Shown here: positions 1-59,680 of the stretch, piece after piece | Layout of the letters: every line of letters begins with the position of its first letter | Position numbering within the stretch: the stretch's first letter is position 1 | From: a virus | Lineage: Duplodnaviria > Caudoviricetes | Strand: one strand, 5' to 3' | Virus record (IMG/VR): IMGVR_UViG_3300033550_000005 | Span: 1-59,758 of that record | DNA length: 59,758 bases | Position numbers and translations under genes: made by a program | The notes under the pieces: model-generated | What the model was told of the DNA's origin: nothing | Databases searched by the model: none | What the model saw: only the letters and a program-made list of their open reading frames with translations

Positions 1-179
1 CTACTACTCTCTCTTTATATATATATATTGTGTTATTCTGTATTAATACTCCTAAACCTATGATCTATAAGACCTAACAGAAAAACACAATTCGAAAATA
101 ATCTGTATTTTCTGTTTCAACTCTTTTGCGGCGGAATCACACCCACCCGAAGTGCCGCGCGTGTTAGGATCGCGAGCAA

Positions 180-245
180 AGAGCCTGGCGCTTCGTACCA
201 AGTCCTTCTGACGGTGGGCGAGGGTCGTGGCGCTAGGTTCTTCCA
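180..245 (+). ncRNA. Putative tRNA-like minihelix RNA ending in UCCA
   Basis: AGAGCCTGGCGC (180-191) pairs with GCGCTAGGTTCT (230-241), with G-U wobbles favouring the + strand. Followed by T-CCA-AC, the same junction seen after tRNA-Ser. Confidence 0.5.
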
Positions 246-247
246 AC

Positions 248-12169: not shown

Positions 12170-12577
12170 GTGATCAGTAAAGAAGGTTACGTCAAACAGC
12201 ACTTCCCAGATGTAGATCCTGGTGTACGACCGTGTGGTAACCAGATCATCGTACAGCTGCGTACCATCAGAAACGCCACAGCAAGTGGTATTCTGTTGGC
12301 GGCAGACACGCAGGACTTTAACAAGCACAACACACAGGTGTCGCGTCTTGTAAAGGTCGGTCAGATCGCCTTCAAGGACCGCTCAAGTGGCGAGACTTGG
12401 AAGGAAGGTGCTTGGGCCGAAGTGGGTGACGTTGTGATTGCACCGAAGTACGGCGGTTTCCGCTTTGAGGTGCCAATCCCAGGACAGGATGAAACTGCCA
12501 TCTTCGCGGTCTTTAATGACTACGATGTCAAGATGGTTGTTGAGGCCAATTTCGAGACGTTTGATCGTCTACTGTAA
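12170..12577 (+). CDS. GroES/Cpn10-like co-chaperonin
   Basis: RPCGNQIIV, TASGILL mobile loop, VGDVVIAPKYGG; GTG start at 12170 with GAGG RBS. Confidence 0.8.
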   Translation: MISKEGYVKQHFPDVDPGVRPCGNQIIVQLRTIRNATASGILLAADTQDFNKHNTQVSRLVKVGQIAFKDRSSGETWKEGAWAEVGDVVIAPKYGGFRFEVPIPGQDETAIFAVFNDYDVKMVVEANFETFDRLL

Positions 12578-39312: not shown

Positions 39313-39623
39313 AGGATGTGAGCCTTTAGTTGGTCTTCGACGAACTTGGCGGCGGCGAAGCCGTCAGTGAAGATGGGAACGCCGTGACCCCAGGCCTCGA
39401 GCTCCTCAAAGAGGTCTGCCTGGCCTGGAGAGAGCTTGCCGATGTCAGGGCGCTTGAACTCGATCCACTGAAAGAAGCTGAACGGCCCCACCACTAGGCG
39501 GTCAGGCCACGAGGCGTAGCCAAGTCCGTTCATCTTCCTAAGCTTGACGGGCAGCTTGAGGCGCTTACACTCCTTCACGAAGTCAGCCTCGATCGTCTTC
39601 TCAAGCTTTGGTTTTGAGCGCAT
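39303..39623 (-). CDS. VRR-NUC domain nuclease
   Basis: EKTIE, WPDRLV, WIEFKRP..LSPGQ. Confidence 0.85.
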   Translation of the reverse strand: MRSKPKLEKTIEADFVKECKRLKLPVKLRKMNGLGYASWPDRLVVGPFSFFQWIEFKRPDIGKLSPGQADLFEELEAWGHGVPIFTDGFAAAKFVEDQLKAHILCQ

Positions 39624-40167
39624 TCAGTAGCTCCACAGCGTGTTCAGCTTGTGAGATCGCATCGTCAAGCGCGTTGTGATAGACGCCGCTTCTTGACAAC
39701 TTGATGTCTCGCCGTAAATTCTTTAGCGTCCTATAACAACGGCCATTGTAATTACTCCATGGAGTCTCCATGTTGACGGCCCTGTAGGCAGCATCTAGGA
39801 GCACGTTGTCGAAGTCTGAGCCGTTGCCCCACACCTTGACCTTCTGCGGCTTCTCTGCGGCGCCAATGAACTCACTGAAGCGTACCAACACGTCGGTCAA
39901 TGGGTTCACATACGACGGGTCACAGGCCTTGAAGAGCGTGCCGAGCGCCTCAGGCTTCTGCTTGTTCCACCACTCGATCGTGTCCTTGCTCTCCGTCAGC
40001 CCGTAGCCGCGACACGAGTCACGTGAGATAATCTCGTGGAACGTAGGGCCAAGCACTTGAAGCTCGGCGTTGAAGTACACGGCTCCGATCGATAAGAGCA
40101 CGGCGCCCGGCTTTGTGTCGAGCGTCTCCAGGTCCAACATCACATCATTAAATCCATCAATAAGCAC
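39601..40167 (-). CDS. DEDDh 3'-5' exonuclease
   Basis: MLDLETL, WGNGSDFD, HNALDDA. Confidence 0.85.
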   Translation of the reverse strand: MLIDGFNDVMLDLETLDTKPGAVLLSIGAVYFNAELQVLGPTFHEIISRDSCRGYGLTESKDTIEWWNKQKPEALGTLFKACDPSYVNPLTDVLVRFSEFIGAAEKPQKVKVWGNGSDFDNVLLDAAYRAVNMETPWSNYNGRCYRTLKNLRRDIKLSRSGVYHNALDDAISQAEHAVELLNALKTKA

Positions 40168-47067: not shown

Positions 47068-48594
47068 TCAACCTCCAAGACCCTGTTCGTGCTGGGCGAT
47101 GTAGTCCAGCACCGACTCACTGAAGCCGTCGATGTGGAGCCACTTTCTGTATCCGATGCCATTGCGGTGCGTCGCCACGTTCACCATGTAGTTGTGTGCG
47201 CCCAACATCTTGGCGTGTTCCGGCTTCAGCTTCGTGTCGCAGTCCTGCTCGTCGGTGAACACGATGACGCGATCAAACGGCTCCTTCTCTTTGCTGGCGA
47301 TGTATTCCATGCACTGCGTCAAGAAGATCCCGCCACCGCCTATCTTGCTACGCACCTCTTGGCCCGAGATGTAGTCAGACAGCGCGAAGCCACGGCGCGG
47401 TGGGATGAGCATGGTCGAGTGTACACGCGTACCATCATTGCCGGCGGTACAGTAGATGGTCGGGTCTTCACAGAGCTCACGGGCGAGGATGGCCAGAGCG
47501 GCTGCGGCCTTGAGACGAGTGAGCTCGGACTTCTCGCTGAGCGCTGCGCCCATGGAACCTGAGGTGTCGAACACAAAGAGCGAACGACCTGGCAGCTTCT
47601 TGACGCCTTCGAGACACTTGAGCATCCAACGTTCGAGCCAGGGCTCCAACTGCGGCACAACTTGGGCAGCGGCGATGAAGCGGAACGGGAGCACACGGCC
47701 CCACTTGCGCGTGTCACCATAGGCCACGATGTCATCCATCGAGACGCCGGCGTTGACCATGTTGCGGAGGTTACGCAGGAAGGCGAGGTCGCCTAGCTTC
47801 CCCTCGGCCATGAGGCGCTTGAACGTCTCAGCCTTGTCCTTACCCGCTGAGAGCTCGGTCTCCCAGGTGTCGGGTGTCTTCAGTTGGTCATAGACCAGCT
47901 TGCCGTAGAGTAGCTCGCCGTTAGAAAAACCTTCCGGACGATGATCAGCTACGTGCTTATCAGCGTATCCGCGTCCCATCTCACGCTCAATGCGAGCATA
48001 GTGTTCACGAGTTTGGCGATCCCACGGCATGGCGTCTTTTGTGACGTCCTTCGGCTTTGAGTGGCAGAGGAACAGCACGTCGCGCAGCTTGACGTCCTTA
48101 TCGCGGTTGTAGCGCGCCAGCTGGAACTCGTCAAACTTGCTGAAGGCCTTCGCGAGGCCCAGCTTCACCTGCTTAGAGAGTGGCTGCTTGCCGTCCTTCC
48201 AGTAGATCGCGAGGAACTCGGACAGCTCGTCTGCACGTTGGATGACGTGGGCGAGCGTCTGGCTGATGTAGCCAGTGTAGTTACGGGACTTATCGTCCTC
48301 GCAACGATTTGGGTGGCGTGCCATCTCACGCACGATCAGCAGCGGCACGTGGCGCAGCTTCATGTTGTCGCGGGCCTCGATCGCGACCTGGGCAGCCTCC
48401 TGCAGTGTCACCGTGTGAACCAGCGCCTTGATACGGTCTGCTGCCGACACACCGCTCTCATAGAAGTTGTCCTCCCACAACATACAGGCCATGGTGAGGC
48501 GGATGAGCTCCTGCAGCGGTGTGATCTTAACTGCCTGCGCACCGCCACCGGTGAAGATCGGTTCGGACTTGGTTGCCTTGTTCGTCGAGGCCAT
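47068..48594 (-). CDS. Ro60/Rsr-like TROVE-domain RNA-binding protein with C-terminal vWA domain
   Basis: LWEDNFYESG, QRADEL, FDEFQLARY, TWETELS, LRNLRN, VLPFRFIAA; MIDAS DTSGSM and VIVFTDEQ. Confidence 0.9.
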   Translation of the reverse strand: MASTNKATKSEPIFTGGGAQAVKITPLQELIRLTMACMLWEDNFYESGVSAADRIKALVHTVTLQEAAQVAIEARDNMKLRHVPLLIVREMARHPNRCEDDKSRNYTGYISQTLAHVIQRADELSEFLAIYWKDGKQPLSKQVKLGLAKAFSKFDEFQLARYNRDKDVKLRDVLFLCHSKPKDVTKDAMPWDRQTREHYARIEREMGRGYADKHVADHRPEGFSNGELLYGKLVYDQLKTPDTWETELSAGKDKAETFKRLMAEGKLGDLAFLRNLRNMVNAGVSMDDIVAYGDTRKWGRVLPFRFIAAAQVVPQLEPWLERWMLKCLEGVKKLPGRSLFVFDTSGSMGAALSEKSELTRLKAAAALAILARELCEDPTIYCTAGNDGTRVHSTMLIPPRRGFALSDYISGQEVRSKIGGGGIFLTQCMEYIASKEKEPFDRVIVFTDEQDCDTKLKPEHAKMLGAHNYMVNVATHRNGIGYRKWLHIDGFSESVLDYIAQHEQGLGG

Positions 48595-48615
48595 CTAGAT
48601 TCTCCTTGGTTAAAC

Positions 48616-48642
48616 AGGGAGGAGCCACACGGCGCCTCCCTG
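48616..48642 (-). promoter_or_regulatory. Hairpin between the AAA+ and TROVE genes
   Basis: CAGGGAGG..CCTCCCTG inverted repeat. Confidence 0.5.
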
Positions 48643-48671
48643 GGTTACGCTTACAACTTCAAACTACCTGC

Positions 48672-50153
48672 TCAGTGGCGGACGACTGCCTCGTGCACCT
48701 GCTTAGCGTGCTTGGAGACCGGCGAGCCTTCGACTGCGCGCTGCATGATGTCGTGCAGCGAGTCCTCGATCGAGCGTGGCTTCTCGGCAGCTTCACGGTA
48801 CAGCAGATCCAGCTGCGACTGCATGGTCTTAGCAGCCTCGGCCAACGCCATGCTCGAGATCTTGGTGACAGGTACACCGGCCGGCTGCAGCGACAGCTGC
48901 GACAGCTTGGCACGCTTGACGACCTCGGCGATCACGGCTGGGATGCGACCGTTCAGCAGCTCGCCCACTTGGGTGAGATCCTCGTCGGCGTCGATCGCGG
49001 TACCGCCATACAGGCGCAACAGCTTGCCAACAGCAACGGCGTCGGGCGGCAGCACGTCGATGACGGCGTCCAGACGACCCGGGCGCAACATGGCCGGGTT
49101 GATGCCTTCCAGGTTGTTGGTCGTGAGGATGACCATGATGTTGGAGGACTTGGTGTCGATGCCATCGATGATGTTGAGGATGTCATCCATCTTCTCGGTG
49201 CGCTCACCGTTCATCTCGCGGTCGATGTCTTCACAGAAGATCACGCAGCCGGGGTTGTTGTACTGCTTGGCAAACGCGATCGCCTCGGCCAGCTCATCAG
49301 CACGGGTCACGTAGAGGTACGTGATGCCCTGAGTCACGGCCTTCTTAGCAGCGACCTTGGCGCAGAGGGTCTTGCCGGTGCCGAAGGTGCCGCCCAGCAG
49401 CACGCCGCGCTTGAACGGGATGCCGTTGGCCGCGCAGTCCTTGACACGCTCGATCGGCGTGAAGAGGTTGGTGCGGACAGCAGCCATCACGTCGTCGGAG
49501 TAGATGAGGTGGTTTTCATCGACATCGGCCACGTTGAGGAACTTGGGCTCAGGCATTTCCAGCTTGTCGCCGGCATCATTGTAGAAGCGGATCTTGAAGG
49601 CCTTGCCACGATAGATGCTGTTGGAGGCGATATAGGCGCGCAGGTCTTGGAACAGGCCTTCAATCGTCGGTTCATCACGACGCTTGACGCTGGCAACCAG
49701 CTCGAAGCAGATGCGGCCGTCGATGGTGTCGGCAGTGCATTGGATGAAGCCGGTGATGCCCGGGATGGACATGCGGCCCCATGGCACCTTACGCTTCTGG
49801 TCGTGGTCGATGTCGACCGTGAGGATCTGCGGAGGCGTAGGACCGAAGAAGCCCGGGGTGGCTTCAGCAGCGACCCAGCCGTAGCGGTTGGTGAGCACGG
49901 TGTCGAGTGCCACGGCGCCGTCCCACGGGAAGACGTCGAACTTCTCGCGCACGACCGTGTCCTCGTCGAGGAAGGCCTTGCGACGGATCAGGGTCTCGAT
50001 GGCCGCGTCGACAGACATGTCAACTGGCAGCGTGATGGCGTTGCCTTGGTTGACGATCTGCACGGCGTGGACGGCCGTCTGCATGTTATGCGCCAGCGTT
50101 TGGTTGTTGGCGGTGTTGGGGATTGCTGGGGTTGTGGGCTTGTTGACAGACAT
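48672..50153 (-). CDS. Classical-clade AAA+ ATPase
   Basis: Walker A GTFGTGKT, Walker B IFCEDID, second region of homology TTNN..INPAMLRPGRLD. Confidence 0.9.
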   Translation of the reverse strand: MSVNKPTTPAIPNTANNQTLAHNMQTAVHAVQIVNQGNAITLPVDMSVDAAIETLIRRKAFLDEDTVVREKFDVFPWDGAVALDTVLTNRYGWVAAEATPGFFGPTPPQILTVDIDHDQKRKVPWGRMSIPGITGFIQCTADTIDGRICFELVASVKRRDEPTIEGLFQDLRAYIASNSIYRGKAFKIRFYNDAGDKLEMPEPKFLNVADVDENHLIYSDDVMAAVRTNLFTPIERVKDCAANGIPFKRGVLLGGTFGTGKTLCAKVAAKKAVTQGITYLYVTRADELAEAIAFAKQYNNPGCVIFCEDIDREMNGERTEKMDDILNIIDGIDTKSSNIMVILTTNNLEGINPAMLRPGRLDAVIDVLPPDAVAVGKLLRLYGGTAIDADEDLTQVGELLNGRIPAVIAEVVKRAKLSQLSLQPAGVPVTKISSMALAEAAKTMQSQLDLLYREAAEKPRSIEDSLHDIMQRAVEGSPVSKHAKQVHEAVVRH

Positions 50154-50186
50154 TGTTTGCTCTCCTTGAGCGTGGTGGGAAACTGG

Positions 50187-50957
50187 TTAGTGAAGCGTGG
50201 AGGGTTGTGGCTCTTCGATGCCGAGCGCGCTTAGGGCGTTCTCAACACGCACTGCGGCAAAGACTTCCTTTGGCAGACCTGTGGCCTTCTCAAGCTGTTC
50301 GAGCAGCTCGGGGCTGAGGTCATCGGCCTCGATGCGACCGTTGGCCGTGATGCGCTGGAGCTCAGCGGCGAGCTCTGGCGACATGTTGCGGGTGTCGAAC
50401 GCGATGCAGTTGTCACCGATCGGGATCCCGACACCGGCCGCTGGAGTTGCCTTGCCGGCGAGGGCCTCGATAAGCTTGTGAAGGCCACTAGGCGCGGGTG
50501 CCTTACCGCTGAGAACTGCCTCGACAAAGGCTTCGTCGGCATACTTCTCGTTGAAGGTGCCGTAGTGCTTGGTGAACTTGGTGAGGTTCTGCTTGACCAC
50601 GCCGTAGTCGGTGGCAACGAGCGGGCCCAGGTCGTCGCCCATGAGCCACACCAGTGCCTCACAGTTGCACATGGCGCCGTACATCGACTGCGGGTGAAAC
50701 TTCCAGTAATGTGCCCAGACGCGGGGTGAGAACATCTTGATCTCACCCATGAGGCTGTCGTGGTCGCGCGGCTTGTTAACGTCGTTCTCAGCAAGTTCCT
50801 TCGTCTGCACGAGGTCGGCCGGAACACGGTGCCAAGGCAGGCGTGCGGCGAGCACCAAGGCAGCGACGCGCCCGTAGTCTTGGTTGGTAGCACGCAGGTA
50901 ATCGATGCGTGCAATGATCTCCTCGTCAGTGCGAGGTGTGAATGCTTGTTGCTCCAT
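50187..50957 (-). CDS. Hypothetical protein
   Basis: AAGGAG RBS; lies between the RNA array and the AAA+ gene. Confidence 0.65.
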   Translation of the reverse strand: MEQQAFTPRTDEEIIARIDYLRATNQDYGRVAALVLAARLPWHRVPADLVQTKELAENDVNKPRDHDSLMGEIKMFSPRVWAHYWKFHPQSMYGAMCNCEALVWLMGDDLGPLVATDYGVVKQNLTKFTKHYGTFNEKYADEAFVEAVLSGKAPAPSGLHKLIEALAGKATPAAGVGIPIGDNCIAFDTRNMSPELAAELQRITANGRIEADDLSPELLEQLEKATGLPKEVFAAVRVENALSALGIEEPQPSTLH

Positions 50958-50988
50958 ATTACTCTCTCCTTAACAAGTACATCAAAAA

Positions 50989-51128
50989 TTGCGGGGAACA
51001 TGTCGCTAGACGTTCAATGCTCGCGCTCTACCAACTGAGCTACGTCACCGGGATCCCCCAGCAACGGTTGGGCTCTAACCAACGACCTCAAGCTCCGGAA
51101 GAAGTATGCCTAACTGCCGCCACCGCAA
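50989..51128 (-). ncRNA. YrlA-like Y RNA 1 (circularly permuted tRNA mimic)
   Basis: Terminal stem GCGGTGGCG..TGTTCCCCGC with TACTTC; then T arm GTTGG-TTAGAGC-CCAAC, loop-closed acceptor-like stem, D arm GCTC-AGTTGGTA-GAGC. Confidence 0.8.
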
Positions 51129-51130
51129 AA

Positions 51131-51232
51131 CTCTCACAAGGGAGACCCGACGCGCATCGCGGTCGGAGCAACCGGGAGGAGGAACCGTGACACCCAGAAA
51201 GGGGAACTGGTGTCGGGTCTCTCTTGTGAGAG
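51131..51232. ncRNA. Structured hairpin RNA A (folds best on + strand)
   Basis: 21-bp inverted repeat CTCTCACAAGGGAGACCCGAC/GTCGGGTCTCTCTTGTGAGAG with internal stems. Confidence 0.5.
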
Positions 51233-51256
51233 CTCACTACAACTTCAAAATAAGGC

Positions 51257-51393
51257 GTGCACCGGGAACAGATCGGGCCAGCGACAAGGTGCTCTAACCA
51301 GCTGAGCTACCCGAGCCGAAACTCGAGGCTGGATTCGAACCAGCGACCACCCTCTTAGCAGGAGAAGTATCTGAACCTATCGCCACGGCGCAC
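51257..51393 (-). ncRNA. YrlA-like Y RNA 2 (circularly permuted tRNA mimic)
   Basis: Terminal stem GTGCGCCGTGGCG..TGTTCCCGGTGCAC with TACTTC; canonical T arm GCTGG-TTCGAAT-CCAGC, loop-closed acceptor CTCGAG/CTCGGG, D arm GCTC-AGCTGGTTA-GAGC. Confidence 0.85.
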
Positions 51394-59338: not shown

Positions 59339-59680
59339 TTAGGCGCTCTTCAGCATCTCGCCTTGTTCACGCAGCTTGTTGGCGTGCCATGCGACGTCCT
59401 TCTCGGTCGCGCGGGAGGTGGGGAAGGTCTTTTTGACGAGCTCGACGATCACGGCATACTTGCCGTAACCACCCGCACGCAGCTTCTCGCGGATGAACTC
59501 GCCGGAACCAACGCGCGGACGCGAACCGGCACCAGACGATGCCTTGGGCAGCACACCGATCACCTTAGCGATGGCAGCTTCCTTGGAACCAGAGAACTTC
59601 TTGATGGGCTTAGCGGCATGCTTGTTGTAGATGCCGGTGAGCTCGACGAGGGACATGGCTTGCAGTTCAGACTTTTTCAT
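59339..59680 (-). CDS. Small basic putative DNA-binding protein
   Basis: AAGGAG RBS; C-terminal domain paralogous to that of 37133..37876. Confidence 0.65.
   Translation of the reverse strand: MKKSELQAMSLVELTGIYNKHAAKPIKKFSGSKEAAIAKVIGVLPKASSGAGSRPRVGSGEFIREKLRAGGYGKYAVIVELVKKTFPTSRATEKDVAWHANKLREQGEMLKSA

Follow-up and report, generated by a model that had tools for sequence, protein, structure and literature searches.

Immediately upstream of a three-tRNA cluster in a phage genome, we observed a rod-like hairpin (positions 180-241, + strand) that is followed by an encoded, unpaired UCCA and is separated from the first tRNA by two further bases. This hairpin is a real, non-random feature at the RNA level, and its ends are of the tRNA type. 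The reading that we prefer, which judging from the anatomy of the element seems to us about evenly poised between right and wrong, is that the hairpin would be a mimic of the tRNA acceptor arm released as an RNA of approximately 63-66 nt.

Genome organization around the hairpin

The window, by which we mean the whole stretch of 59,758 nt that was analyzed, is a complete IMG/VR virus record (CheckV completeness of 100%; ends classed as "linear"), and all six sequencing runs with matching DNA were soil metagenomes. Genes on the + strand span position 519 to approximately 30.4 kb, ~30 kb in all, and begin with a Phage_gp49_66 protein, a 154-aa ORF without assignment and the large terminase (TerL), so that the rightward unit runs into the packaging genes. 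Genes on the - strand occupy approximately 30.4-59.7 kb and include DNA polymerase A, an SNF2 helicase, thymidylate synthase and dCMP deaminase. Also on this strand (39601-40167), a 188-aa protein with an Rv2179c-like 3'-5' exoribonuclease domain (E = 1e-47) is encoded between a PD-(D/E)XK nuclease and the SNF2 helicase, close to DNA polymerase A. The nearest named terminases are those of Paracoccus, Rhizobium and Roseobacter phages (43-57% identity), and an alphaproteobacterial host is therefore likely.

The record opens in a (TA)n run (window 1-28), and its ends are probably assembly breaks of a circular or permuted genome. A contig from one sequencing run (X3) reaches 41 nt to the left of window base 1; the assembly thus probably broke at the (TA)n run, and base 1 would not be a physical genome end. 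If so, the hairpin would lie within a divergent control region, between a leftward gene (start at 59,680) and the rightward unit. The features of this region are as follows.

1-120, + strand: AT-rich non-coding stretch with (TA)n at 16-28 (26% G+C, compared with 56% window-wide); presumed promoter region of the tRNA and structural-gene unit
127-159, + strand: leader hairpin (7-bp stem, C-rich loop; minimum free energy fold of 100-330)
180-241, + strand: rod-like hairpin (RNA folding, pair probabilities and opposite-strand control)
242-245, + strand: U242 in the discriminator position and encoded CCA at 243-245 (sequence; fold ensemble)
246-247, + strand: AC spacer, the same as the Ser-Thr spacer at 419-420 and as the first two bases past tRNA-Arg
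248-324, + strand: tRNA-Arg(TCT) with encoded CCA (ARAGORN and Rfam; 60.6 bits)
329-418, + strand: tRNA-Ser(TGA) with encoded CCA (ARAGORN and Rfam; 57.8 bits)
421-496, + strand: tRNA-Thr(TGT) with encoded CCA (ARAGORN and Rfam; 66.7 bits)

The first protein-coding gene of the unit (ORF 519-902, Phage_gp49_66) begins 22 nt past tRNA-Thr, and no terminator was predicted in the gap. Upstream of the hairpin, a single weak sigma-70-like match was present at 74-102 (0.4 expected), and no promoter motif was found to be repeated between positions 1-250 and the remainder of the window. The tRNA-Ser/tRNA-Thr pair (329-496) showed approximately 74% identity and similar spacing to the adjacent Ser-Thr pair of T4-like phages. 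By eye, the CCCACC in the loop of the leader hairpin (142-147) has a complement, GGUGGG (213-218), in the inner part of the 3' strand of the main hairpin; the two could form a kissing interaction or an alternative pairing, and six pairs are within chance.

Structure of the hairpin and its junction with the tRNA cluster

The basal stem consists of 13 uninterrupted pairs (180-192/229-241, from A180-U241 to U192-G229), of which three are G-U pairs (G183-U238, G187-U234 and U192-G229), and A179-U242 is a possible 14th pair. A first-pass annotation of this DNA had reported an uninterrupted stem of approximately 12-13 bp, about the length of a coaxial acceptor plus T stem, and the 13 pairs bear this out. 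Above the stem, the rod continues through a 1x1 U-U loop, 2 bp, a 2x2 loop, 2 bp, a second 2x2 loop and 4 bp (202-205/216-219) to an apical loop of 10 nt, UUCUGACGGU (206-215).

The 66-mer spanning 180-245 folded at -36.8 kcal/mol (z = -5.22), and none of 200 shuffled sequences was as good. Pair probabilities were 1.0 for 181-191/230-240, 0.75 for A180-U241 and near 1 for most of the rod, and the hairpin was kept when the wider context (100-330) was folded. None of the 25 suboptimal folds within 3 kcal/mol paired any of positions 242-245. As at the end of a tRNA, paired 5' and 3' ends are thus followed by an unpaired N73 (U242) and CCA.

The reverse complement of the hairpin folded at only -17.9 kcal/mol (z = -0.59), with 55 of 200 shuffled sequences as good. 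The strong fold on the + strand, as opposed to the shuffle-like fold on the - strand, indicates an RNA-level feature of the tRNA strand and not a DNA palindrome. It is therefore extremely improbable that the hairpin is a palindrome that arose by chance or acts at the DNA level, for instance as an attachment site with a tRNA 3' fragment, or as a packaging signal. Its position near the terminase genes and the end of the record would suit such an element, but that end is probably an assembly break, the G-U pairs of the stem become A-C mismatches on the other strand, and the 3' arm of the hairpin has no tRNA homology. Neither an integrase nor a resolvase was found in the window, which makes an attachment site unlikely.

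The hexamer TCCAAC was found at the end of the hairpin (242-247), of tRNA-Arg (321-326) and of tRNA-Ser (415-420). The gap between the CCA of the hairpin and the start of tRNA-Arg at 248 is only 2 nt. The earlier description of a U-CCA followed by the AC spacer that separates tRNA-Ser from tRNA-Thr was accurate, since 242-247 and 415-420 are the same.

Stem length alone is not above chance: the window has 25 hairpins with at least 12 uninterrupted pairs on its + strand and another 18 on its - strand. The hexamer TCCAAC occurred 48 times over both strands (about 4e-4 per position, or ~once per 2,500 nt of strand), and in the present case it occupies exactly the six bases from the non-coding hairpin to the first tRNA. 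Taken together, the features do exceed chance: the fold is strong and strand-asymmetric, the site is non-coding, and T-CCA-AC joins the hairpin to a tRNA in register.

Comparison with tRNAs and other RNA families

The hairpin matched none of the 4,227 Rfam families when positions 1-600 were searched at E ≤ 10 (tRNA RF00005, tRNA-Sec, tmRNA and SRP included), so the Rfam scan that had been proposed as a check left 180-247 without a family even at this threshold. ARAGORN in its standard, relaxed (-ps, -ps80), intron and mitochondrial modes returned the three tRNAs only and nothing at the hairpin, which upholds, together with the Rfam result, the earlier statement that D, T and anticodon consensus loops are absent. 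With the -m option, ARAGORN reported 0 tmRNA genes in 1-700, and there was no Rfam tmRNA match at the hairpin. Like a canonical tRNA, the hairpin has a 3' NCCA, a spacer, the strand and a position in the cluster; unlike one, it has no cloverleaf and no D or T loops. A tRNA identity was rejected (no cloverleaf, D arm, anticodon arm or T arm was detected). Also rejected was an intrinsic terminator: the tail is UCCAAC and not a U run, and positions 1-1000 of the + strand gave no terminator-like site.

An identity element of the AlaRS type (G3-U70) was considered and rejected, as a G-U pair falls at 3:70 only if the tail is read as UUCCA, one base too long. In the natural register the G-U pairs sit at 4:69 and 8:65. 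Aminoacylation is not arguable from the hairpin sequence and stays a conjecture.

Could the hairpin be what is left of a tRNA? We consider descent from a tRNA, through decay to a pseudogene or extreme reduction to an "armless" adaptor, quite improbable; in this reading the apical UUCUGAC would serve as an anticodon loop (U33, CUG, A37). The tRNA slot, the tRNA-type 3' end and the spacer speak for this, and by eye the 7-nt loop fits the pattern Y32-U33-NNN-R37. This pattern, however, has about a 1 in 16 chance, and a 7-nt loop would have just 2 pairs beneath it, whereas the ensemble favors a loop of 10 nt or 4 nt. The Rfam tRNA and tRNA-Sec models (E ≤ 10) and the relaxed and mitochondrial modes of ARAGORN gave no match, and decay is not expected to create 13-14 perfect pairs. 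Uninterrupted pairing of this length, together with a regularly paired distal rod, would not be expected from a simple tRNA remnant.

Predicted processing of the hairpin RNA

The element had been described as built to be processed like a tRNA. Its anatomy agrees with this description (helix length, single-stranded UCCA, TCCAAC and the 2-nt gap), and the processing itself is a prediction from that anatomy. We propose that transcription would start at a promoter within the upstream AT-rich stretch and would place the hairpin and the three tRNAs on one RNA. Maturation of tRNA-Arg requires an RNase P cut at its 5' end (G248), and the upstream RNA freed by this cut must therefore end in UCCAAC. Because UCCAAC carries the trailer that is also trimmed from tRNA-Ser, trimming of the hairpin RNA back to CCA is expected, presumably by the same 3' exonucleases that would remove the AC trailer of tRNA-Ser. 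As a long helix with a free UCCA constitutes a minimal bacterial RNase P substrate, a second RNase P cut at A180/G181 would follow and would detach the leader. What remains would be a stable hairpin RNA whose 3' end is tRNA-like but which has neither an elbow nor a cloverleaf; it may function through proteins that recognize the acceptor stem and the CCA end.

The T loop is normally used by RNase P to measure the helix of its substrate. Among the points that count against the acceptor-arm mimic are that the hairpin has no T loop and that the promoter search gave only the one weak match. The published description of hairpin substrates gives, as the requirements of RNase P, a helix of ~12 bp from the cleavage site and, at the 3' end, a free RCCA for pairing with the P15 loop of the enzyme; the hairpin has 13 bp and a free UCCA. 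Pairing of the leader with the RCCA is described as an anti-determinant of cleavage. Since A178 and A179 are unable to pair with C243 and C244, this anti-determinant is absent here, save for a possible A179-U242 pair, which could shift or slow cleavage.

It is possible, although we think it rather unlikely, that the hairpin is leader structure only, which stabilizes or organizes the precursor of the tRNAs and late genes and is discarded after the tRNA-Arg cut; the CCA would then be a docking aid for RNase P or a by-product. The hairpin does head a rightward unit that continues into the packaging genes, and it is itself preceded by a second hairpin. Stems this long are common in the window (43 over both strands), and both a homologue and a target were sought and not found. 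A stabilizer, however, could do without both the encoded CCA and the exact TCCAAC junction, and maturation of tRNA-Arg does not need an upstream helix. In addition, the whole 62-nt rod is well paired and strand-specific, which goes beyond the needs of a simple cap.

The same position at the head of the late operon would suit another cis-acting RNA signal, such as an RNase III processing site on the rod of roughly 26 layers, or a put-type two-hairpin element for processive antitermination. Two adjacent hairpins lie between the AT-rich promoter region and about 30 kb of + strand genes, and a rod with symmetric internal loops resembles, as we take it, the RNase III sites of phages. We nevertheless regard such a signal as very improbable: neither the RNase III nor the put idea explains the in-register TCCAAC, no Rfam family matches, and the closest TerL relative has no similar element.

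Comparison with characterized RNAs

A CCA-like 3' element is present in the C4 RNA of phages, an antisense RNA with loops complementary to a target farther down its own transcript. C4 (phages P1/P7) and M3 (phi80) are reported among the natural substrates of RNase P, which makes their 5' ends, and they resemble the window hairpin in being small hairpin RNAs of phages that are not tRNAs; unlike it, they sit outside tRNA clusters. The C4 family, in so far as it is included in Rfam release 15, gave no match on 180-247 at E ≤ 10. No antisense target of the hairpin of at least 11 nt was found within the window; there were nine 10-mers, about the chance level, and shorter loop pairings are possible.

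According to published work, E. coli RNase P RNA efficiently cuts model hairpins built like the acceptor stem, T stem and T loop of a tRNA, and in pre-4.5S RNA the T loop is replaced by a continuous helix. The window hairpin shares with the minihelix substrates and with pre-4.5S (SRP) RNA a continuous helix of approximately the length of the coaxial acceptor and T stems, a single-stranded 3' NCCA and a single-stranded 5' leader. It differs from the model minihelices, in which the T loop is kept, by continuing as an irregular rod, and its cleavage by RNase P is predicted only. It differs from 4.5S RNA, which has conserved SRP motifs, by matching no SRP model at E ≤ 10. We infer that the hairpin belongs with the phage hairpin RNAs shaped for RNase P; natural substrates of this enzyme other than tRNAs are few, and it would join them as a minimal example.

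Species 1 and 2 of phage T4 (rnaC and rnaD) are likewise encoded by non-tRNA genes in a phage tRNA unit, next to a tRNA-Arg, with a spacing of 1-6 nt in T4 and of 2 nt for the window hairpin. They are stable RNAs of unknown function and, at 139 and 119 nt, are longer than the window hairpin. T4 rnaC, unlike the hairpin, has a canonical T arm (CCGGG-UUCGAAU-CCCGG), a branched fold and no encoded CCA. No sequence similarity of the hairpin to rnaC or rnaD was found by blastn in a phage collection containing T4, and the folds differ. The resemblance is one of position, not of kind.

Searches for relatives

A blastn search with positions 120-250 against 50,697 phage records returned nothing at E ≤ 10. 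A gapped pattern of the hairpin had 0 matches in the genomes of 185,579 species, and the junction 21-mer likewise had 0 matches. When a covariance model of the hairpin was run against 91 sources (1.14 Mb), it matched itself alone; whole records of nearest relatives, five in all, gave no match, an empty result of a kind that carries little weight. A 17-mer of the 3' arm matched viral contigs twice, and both matches were rejected as chance, being in the coding DNA of unrelated AT-rich phages. In the literature, judged by titles and abstracts, nothing on point was found for a comparable phage element.

Relatives of the large terminase were present in 22 viral and 11 metagenome loci, with best identities of approximately 65-77% over part of the protein. 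tRNAs were absent from 20 of the 22 viral loci and from all 11 metagenome loci. The two exceptions (L013 and L015) are distant relatives with Trp/Pro tRNAs about 3.4-3.9 kb upstream of TerL, unlike the cluster of the window. The best TerL relative, a record that is 99% complete (G001), had no tRNA at all and no similar hairpin. Relatives of the gp49-like ORF were found at four distant loci, none with tRNAs. Among 52 loci with relatives of the Rsr protein (see below), the four closest records and L093 had no tRNA above the cut-off. A 22-mer of the tRNA-Arg D arm was found in 29 loci, where at most 60 of 77 positions were identical to the tRNA-Arg of the window. From these sequence comparisons, the tRNA cassette and hairpin look like a lineage-specific acquisition.

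Sequence variants within the hairpin were not found among the contigs of the sequencing runs. The only other contig that spans the whole hairpin (run X4, 47-469) is identical, run X3 covers bases 1-199 without a difference, and runs X5 and X6 contributed only cross-matching tRNA pieces from other organisms. With no homologue and a single, identical further contig, the hairpin has no support from covariation or conservation, and this lack of comparative evidence is the main weakness here. Because the hairpin is an orphan, its status as a gene and its function remain matters of inference.

CCA-tailed hairpins near tRNAs

We surveyed 125 loci (1.46 Mb; 352 distinct tRNA sequences), most of them from Rsr-encoding phages and often with large tRNA clusters, for hairpins followed by CCA at an offset of 0-1. 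CCA-tailed hairpins were not enriched near tRNAs (4/58, compared with 133/3974 elsewhere; Fisher P = 0.13), and the same comparison without the hairpin of the window gave 3/57 near tRNAs (P = 0.30). With a looser cut, the corresponding frequencies were 7/83 near tRNAs and 243/7055 elsewhere. A general enrichment of CCA-tailed hairpins beside tRNAs is absent in these 125 loci.

The nearest analogue of the window hairpin is an 11-bp hairpin with a 13-nt loop, located 4 nt past a tRNA-Met (L059 9069-9106, the same as 12466-12503 of the near-duplicate L098). It is followed by CCAATTT, a trailer that is found after the neighboring tRNAs too. A second candidate, in an 87-nt gap between tRNA-Arg and tRNA-Glu (L057 8289-8375), takes a cloverleaf fold in which both a T arm and a 3' CCA are present; it is probably an unusual tRNA, not called by ARAGORN. 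The remaining candidates were rejected, one for a competing terminator-like hairpin (L057 820-917) and the others (L058, L080 and L059 10387) as short and out of register.

Ro60 and YrlA-like genes and the possible function of the hairpin

The first-pass annotation had set the hairpin beside the Y RNAs, as a mirror image of RNAs that have the elbow but no CCA end. This comparison gains from the gene content of the window, which includes a TROVE/Ro60 protein and two YrlA-like RNAs, and loses from the hairpin itself, in which we found no sequence feature tying it to Rsr. The genes are the following.

47,068-48,594, - strand: TROVE/Ro60 (Rsr) protein, 508 aa
48672-50153, - strand: AAA ATPase (phrog_10440, E = 5e-205), preceding the Rsr gene
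51,025-51,087, - strand: YrlA-like RNA (23.9 bits; below the Rfam gathering score of 69)
51,265-51,374, - strand: YrlA-like RNA (43.8 bits, E = 2.4e-7; below the Rfam gathering score of 69)

The Rsr region (47068-51374, - strand) also holds a 256-aa ORF without a family, and in the order of the - strand the two YrlA-like RNAs precede the 256-aa ORF, the AAA ATPase and the Rsr genes. Neither RtcB nor a CCA-adding enzyme is encoded in the window. YrlA is described in the literature as a mimic of the D/T elbow that binds Rsr through a 5' GNCGAA motif, and in M. smegmatis it is reported to be cut by RNase P and CCA-tailed in vivo. The hairpin is like YrlA in that a non-tRNA mimics a tRNA, and unlike it in having neither the D/T elbow nor the GNCGAA motif; the published Rsr-binding motif, GNCGAA(N)G, is absent from its 5' strand. 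The YrlA model did not match the hairpin and, in this region, matched only the Ser/Thr tRNA junction (390-445).

Phage tRNA genes are now regarded partly as countermeasures to host enzymes that damage tRNAs. A natural phage minihelix gene would make it testable whether phages also carry RNA decoys alongside replacement tRNAs. A decoy role against toxins that target tRNA 3' ends, which had been raised for the hairpin, is a conjecture, made plausible only by papers in which several recently described antiphage effectors directed at the acceptor stem and CCA tail accept bare synthetic minihelices in vitro. The toxSAS enzymes are reported to pyrophosphorylate the CCA end, to read the first five acceptor pairs and to modify a synthetic minihelix; MenT is reported to add nucleotides to the CCA end; and Cas12a3 is reported to cleave CCA tails, with reporters that mimic an acceptor stem and tail serving as substrates.

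In its full form, the proposal is that the phage splits tRNA mimicry in two. The YrlA-like RNAs would copy the elbow, and the minihelix would copy only the acceptor stem and CCA. Expressed in large amounts as part of the tRNA operon, the minihelix would be a competing substrate that titrates host immune effectors directed at tRNA 3' ends (toxSAS pyrophosphokinases, nucleotidyltransferases of the MenT/AbiE type and Cas12a3). We hold this to be improbable, and a stoichiometric decoy would need very high expression. If the decoy reading were true, the hairpin would be the first natural RNA decoy against immunity that targets the tRNA tail. Even without a role of its own, it would be a compact natural example of the leader of a tRNA operon shaped for the tRNA-processing machinery.

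Rsr homologues were widespread among IMG/VR phages, with 52 viral contigs (L048-L099) at 36-59% identity. Many of them adjoin large same-strand tRNA clusters, the extreme being L057, where 34 tRNAs lie within 10 kb.
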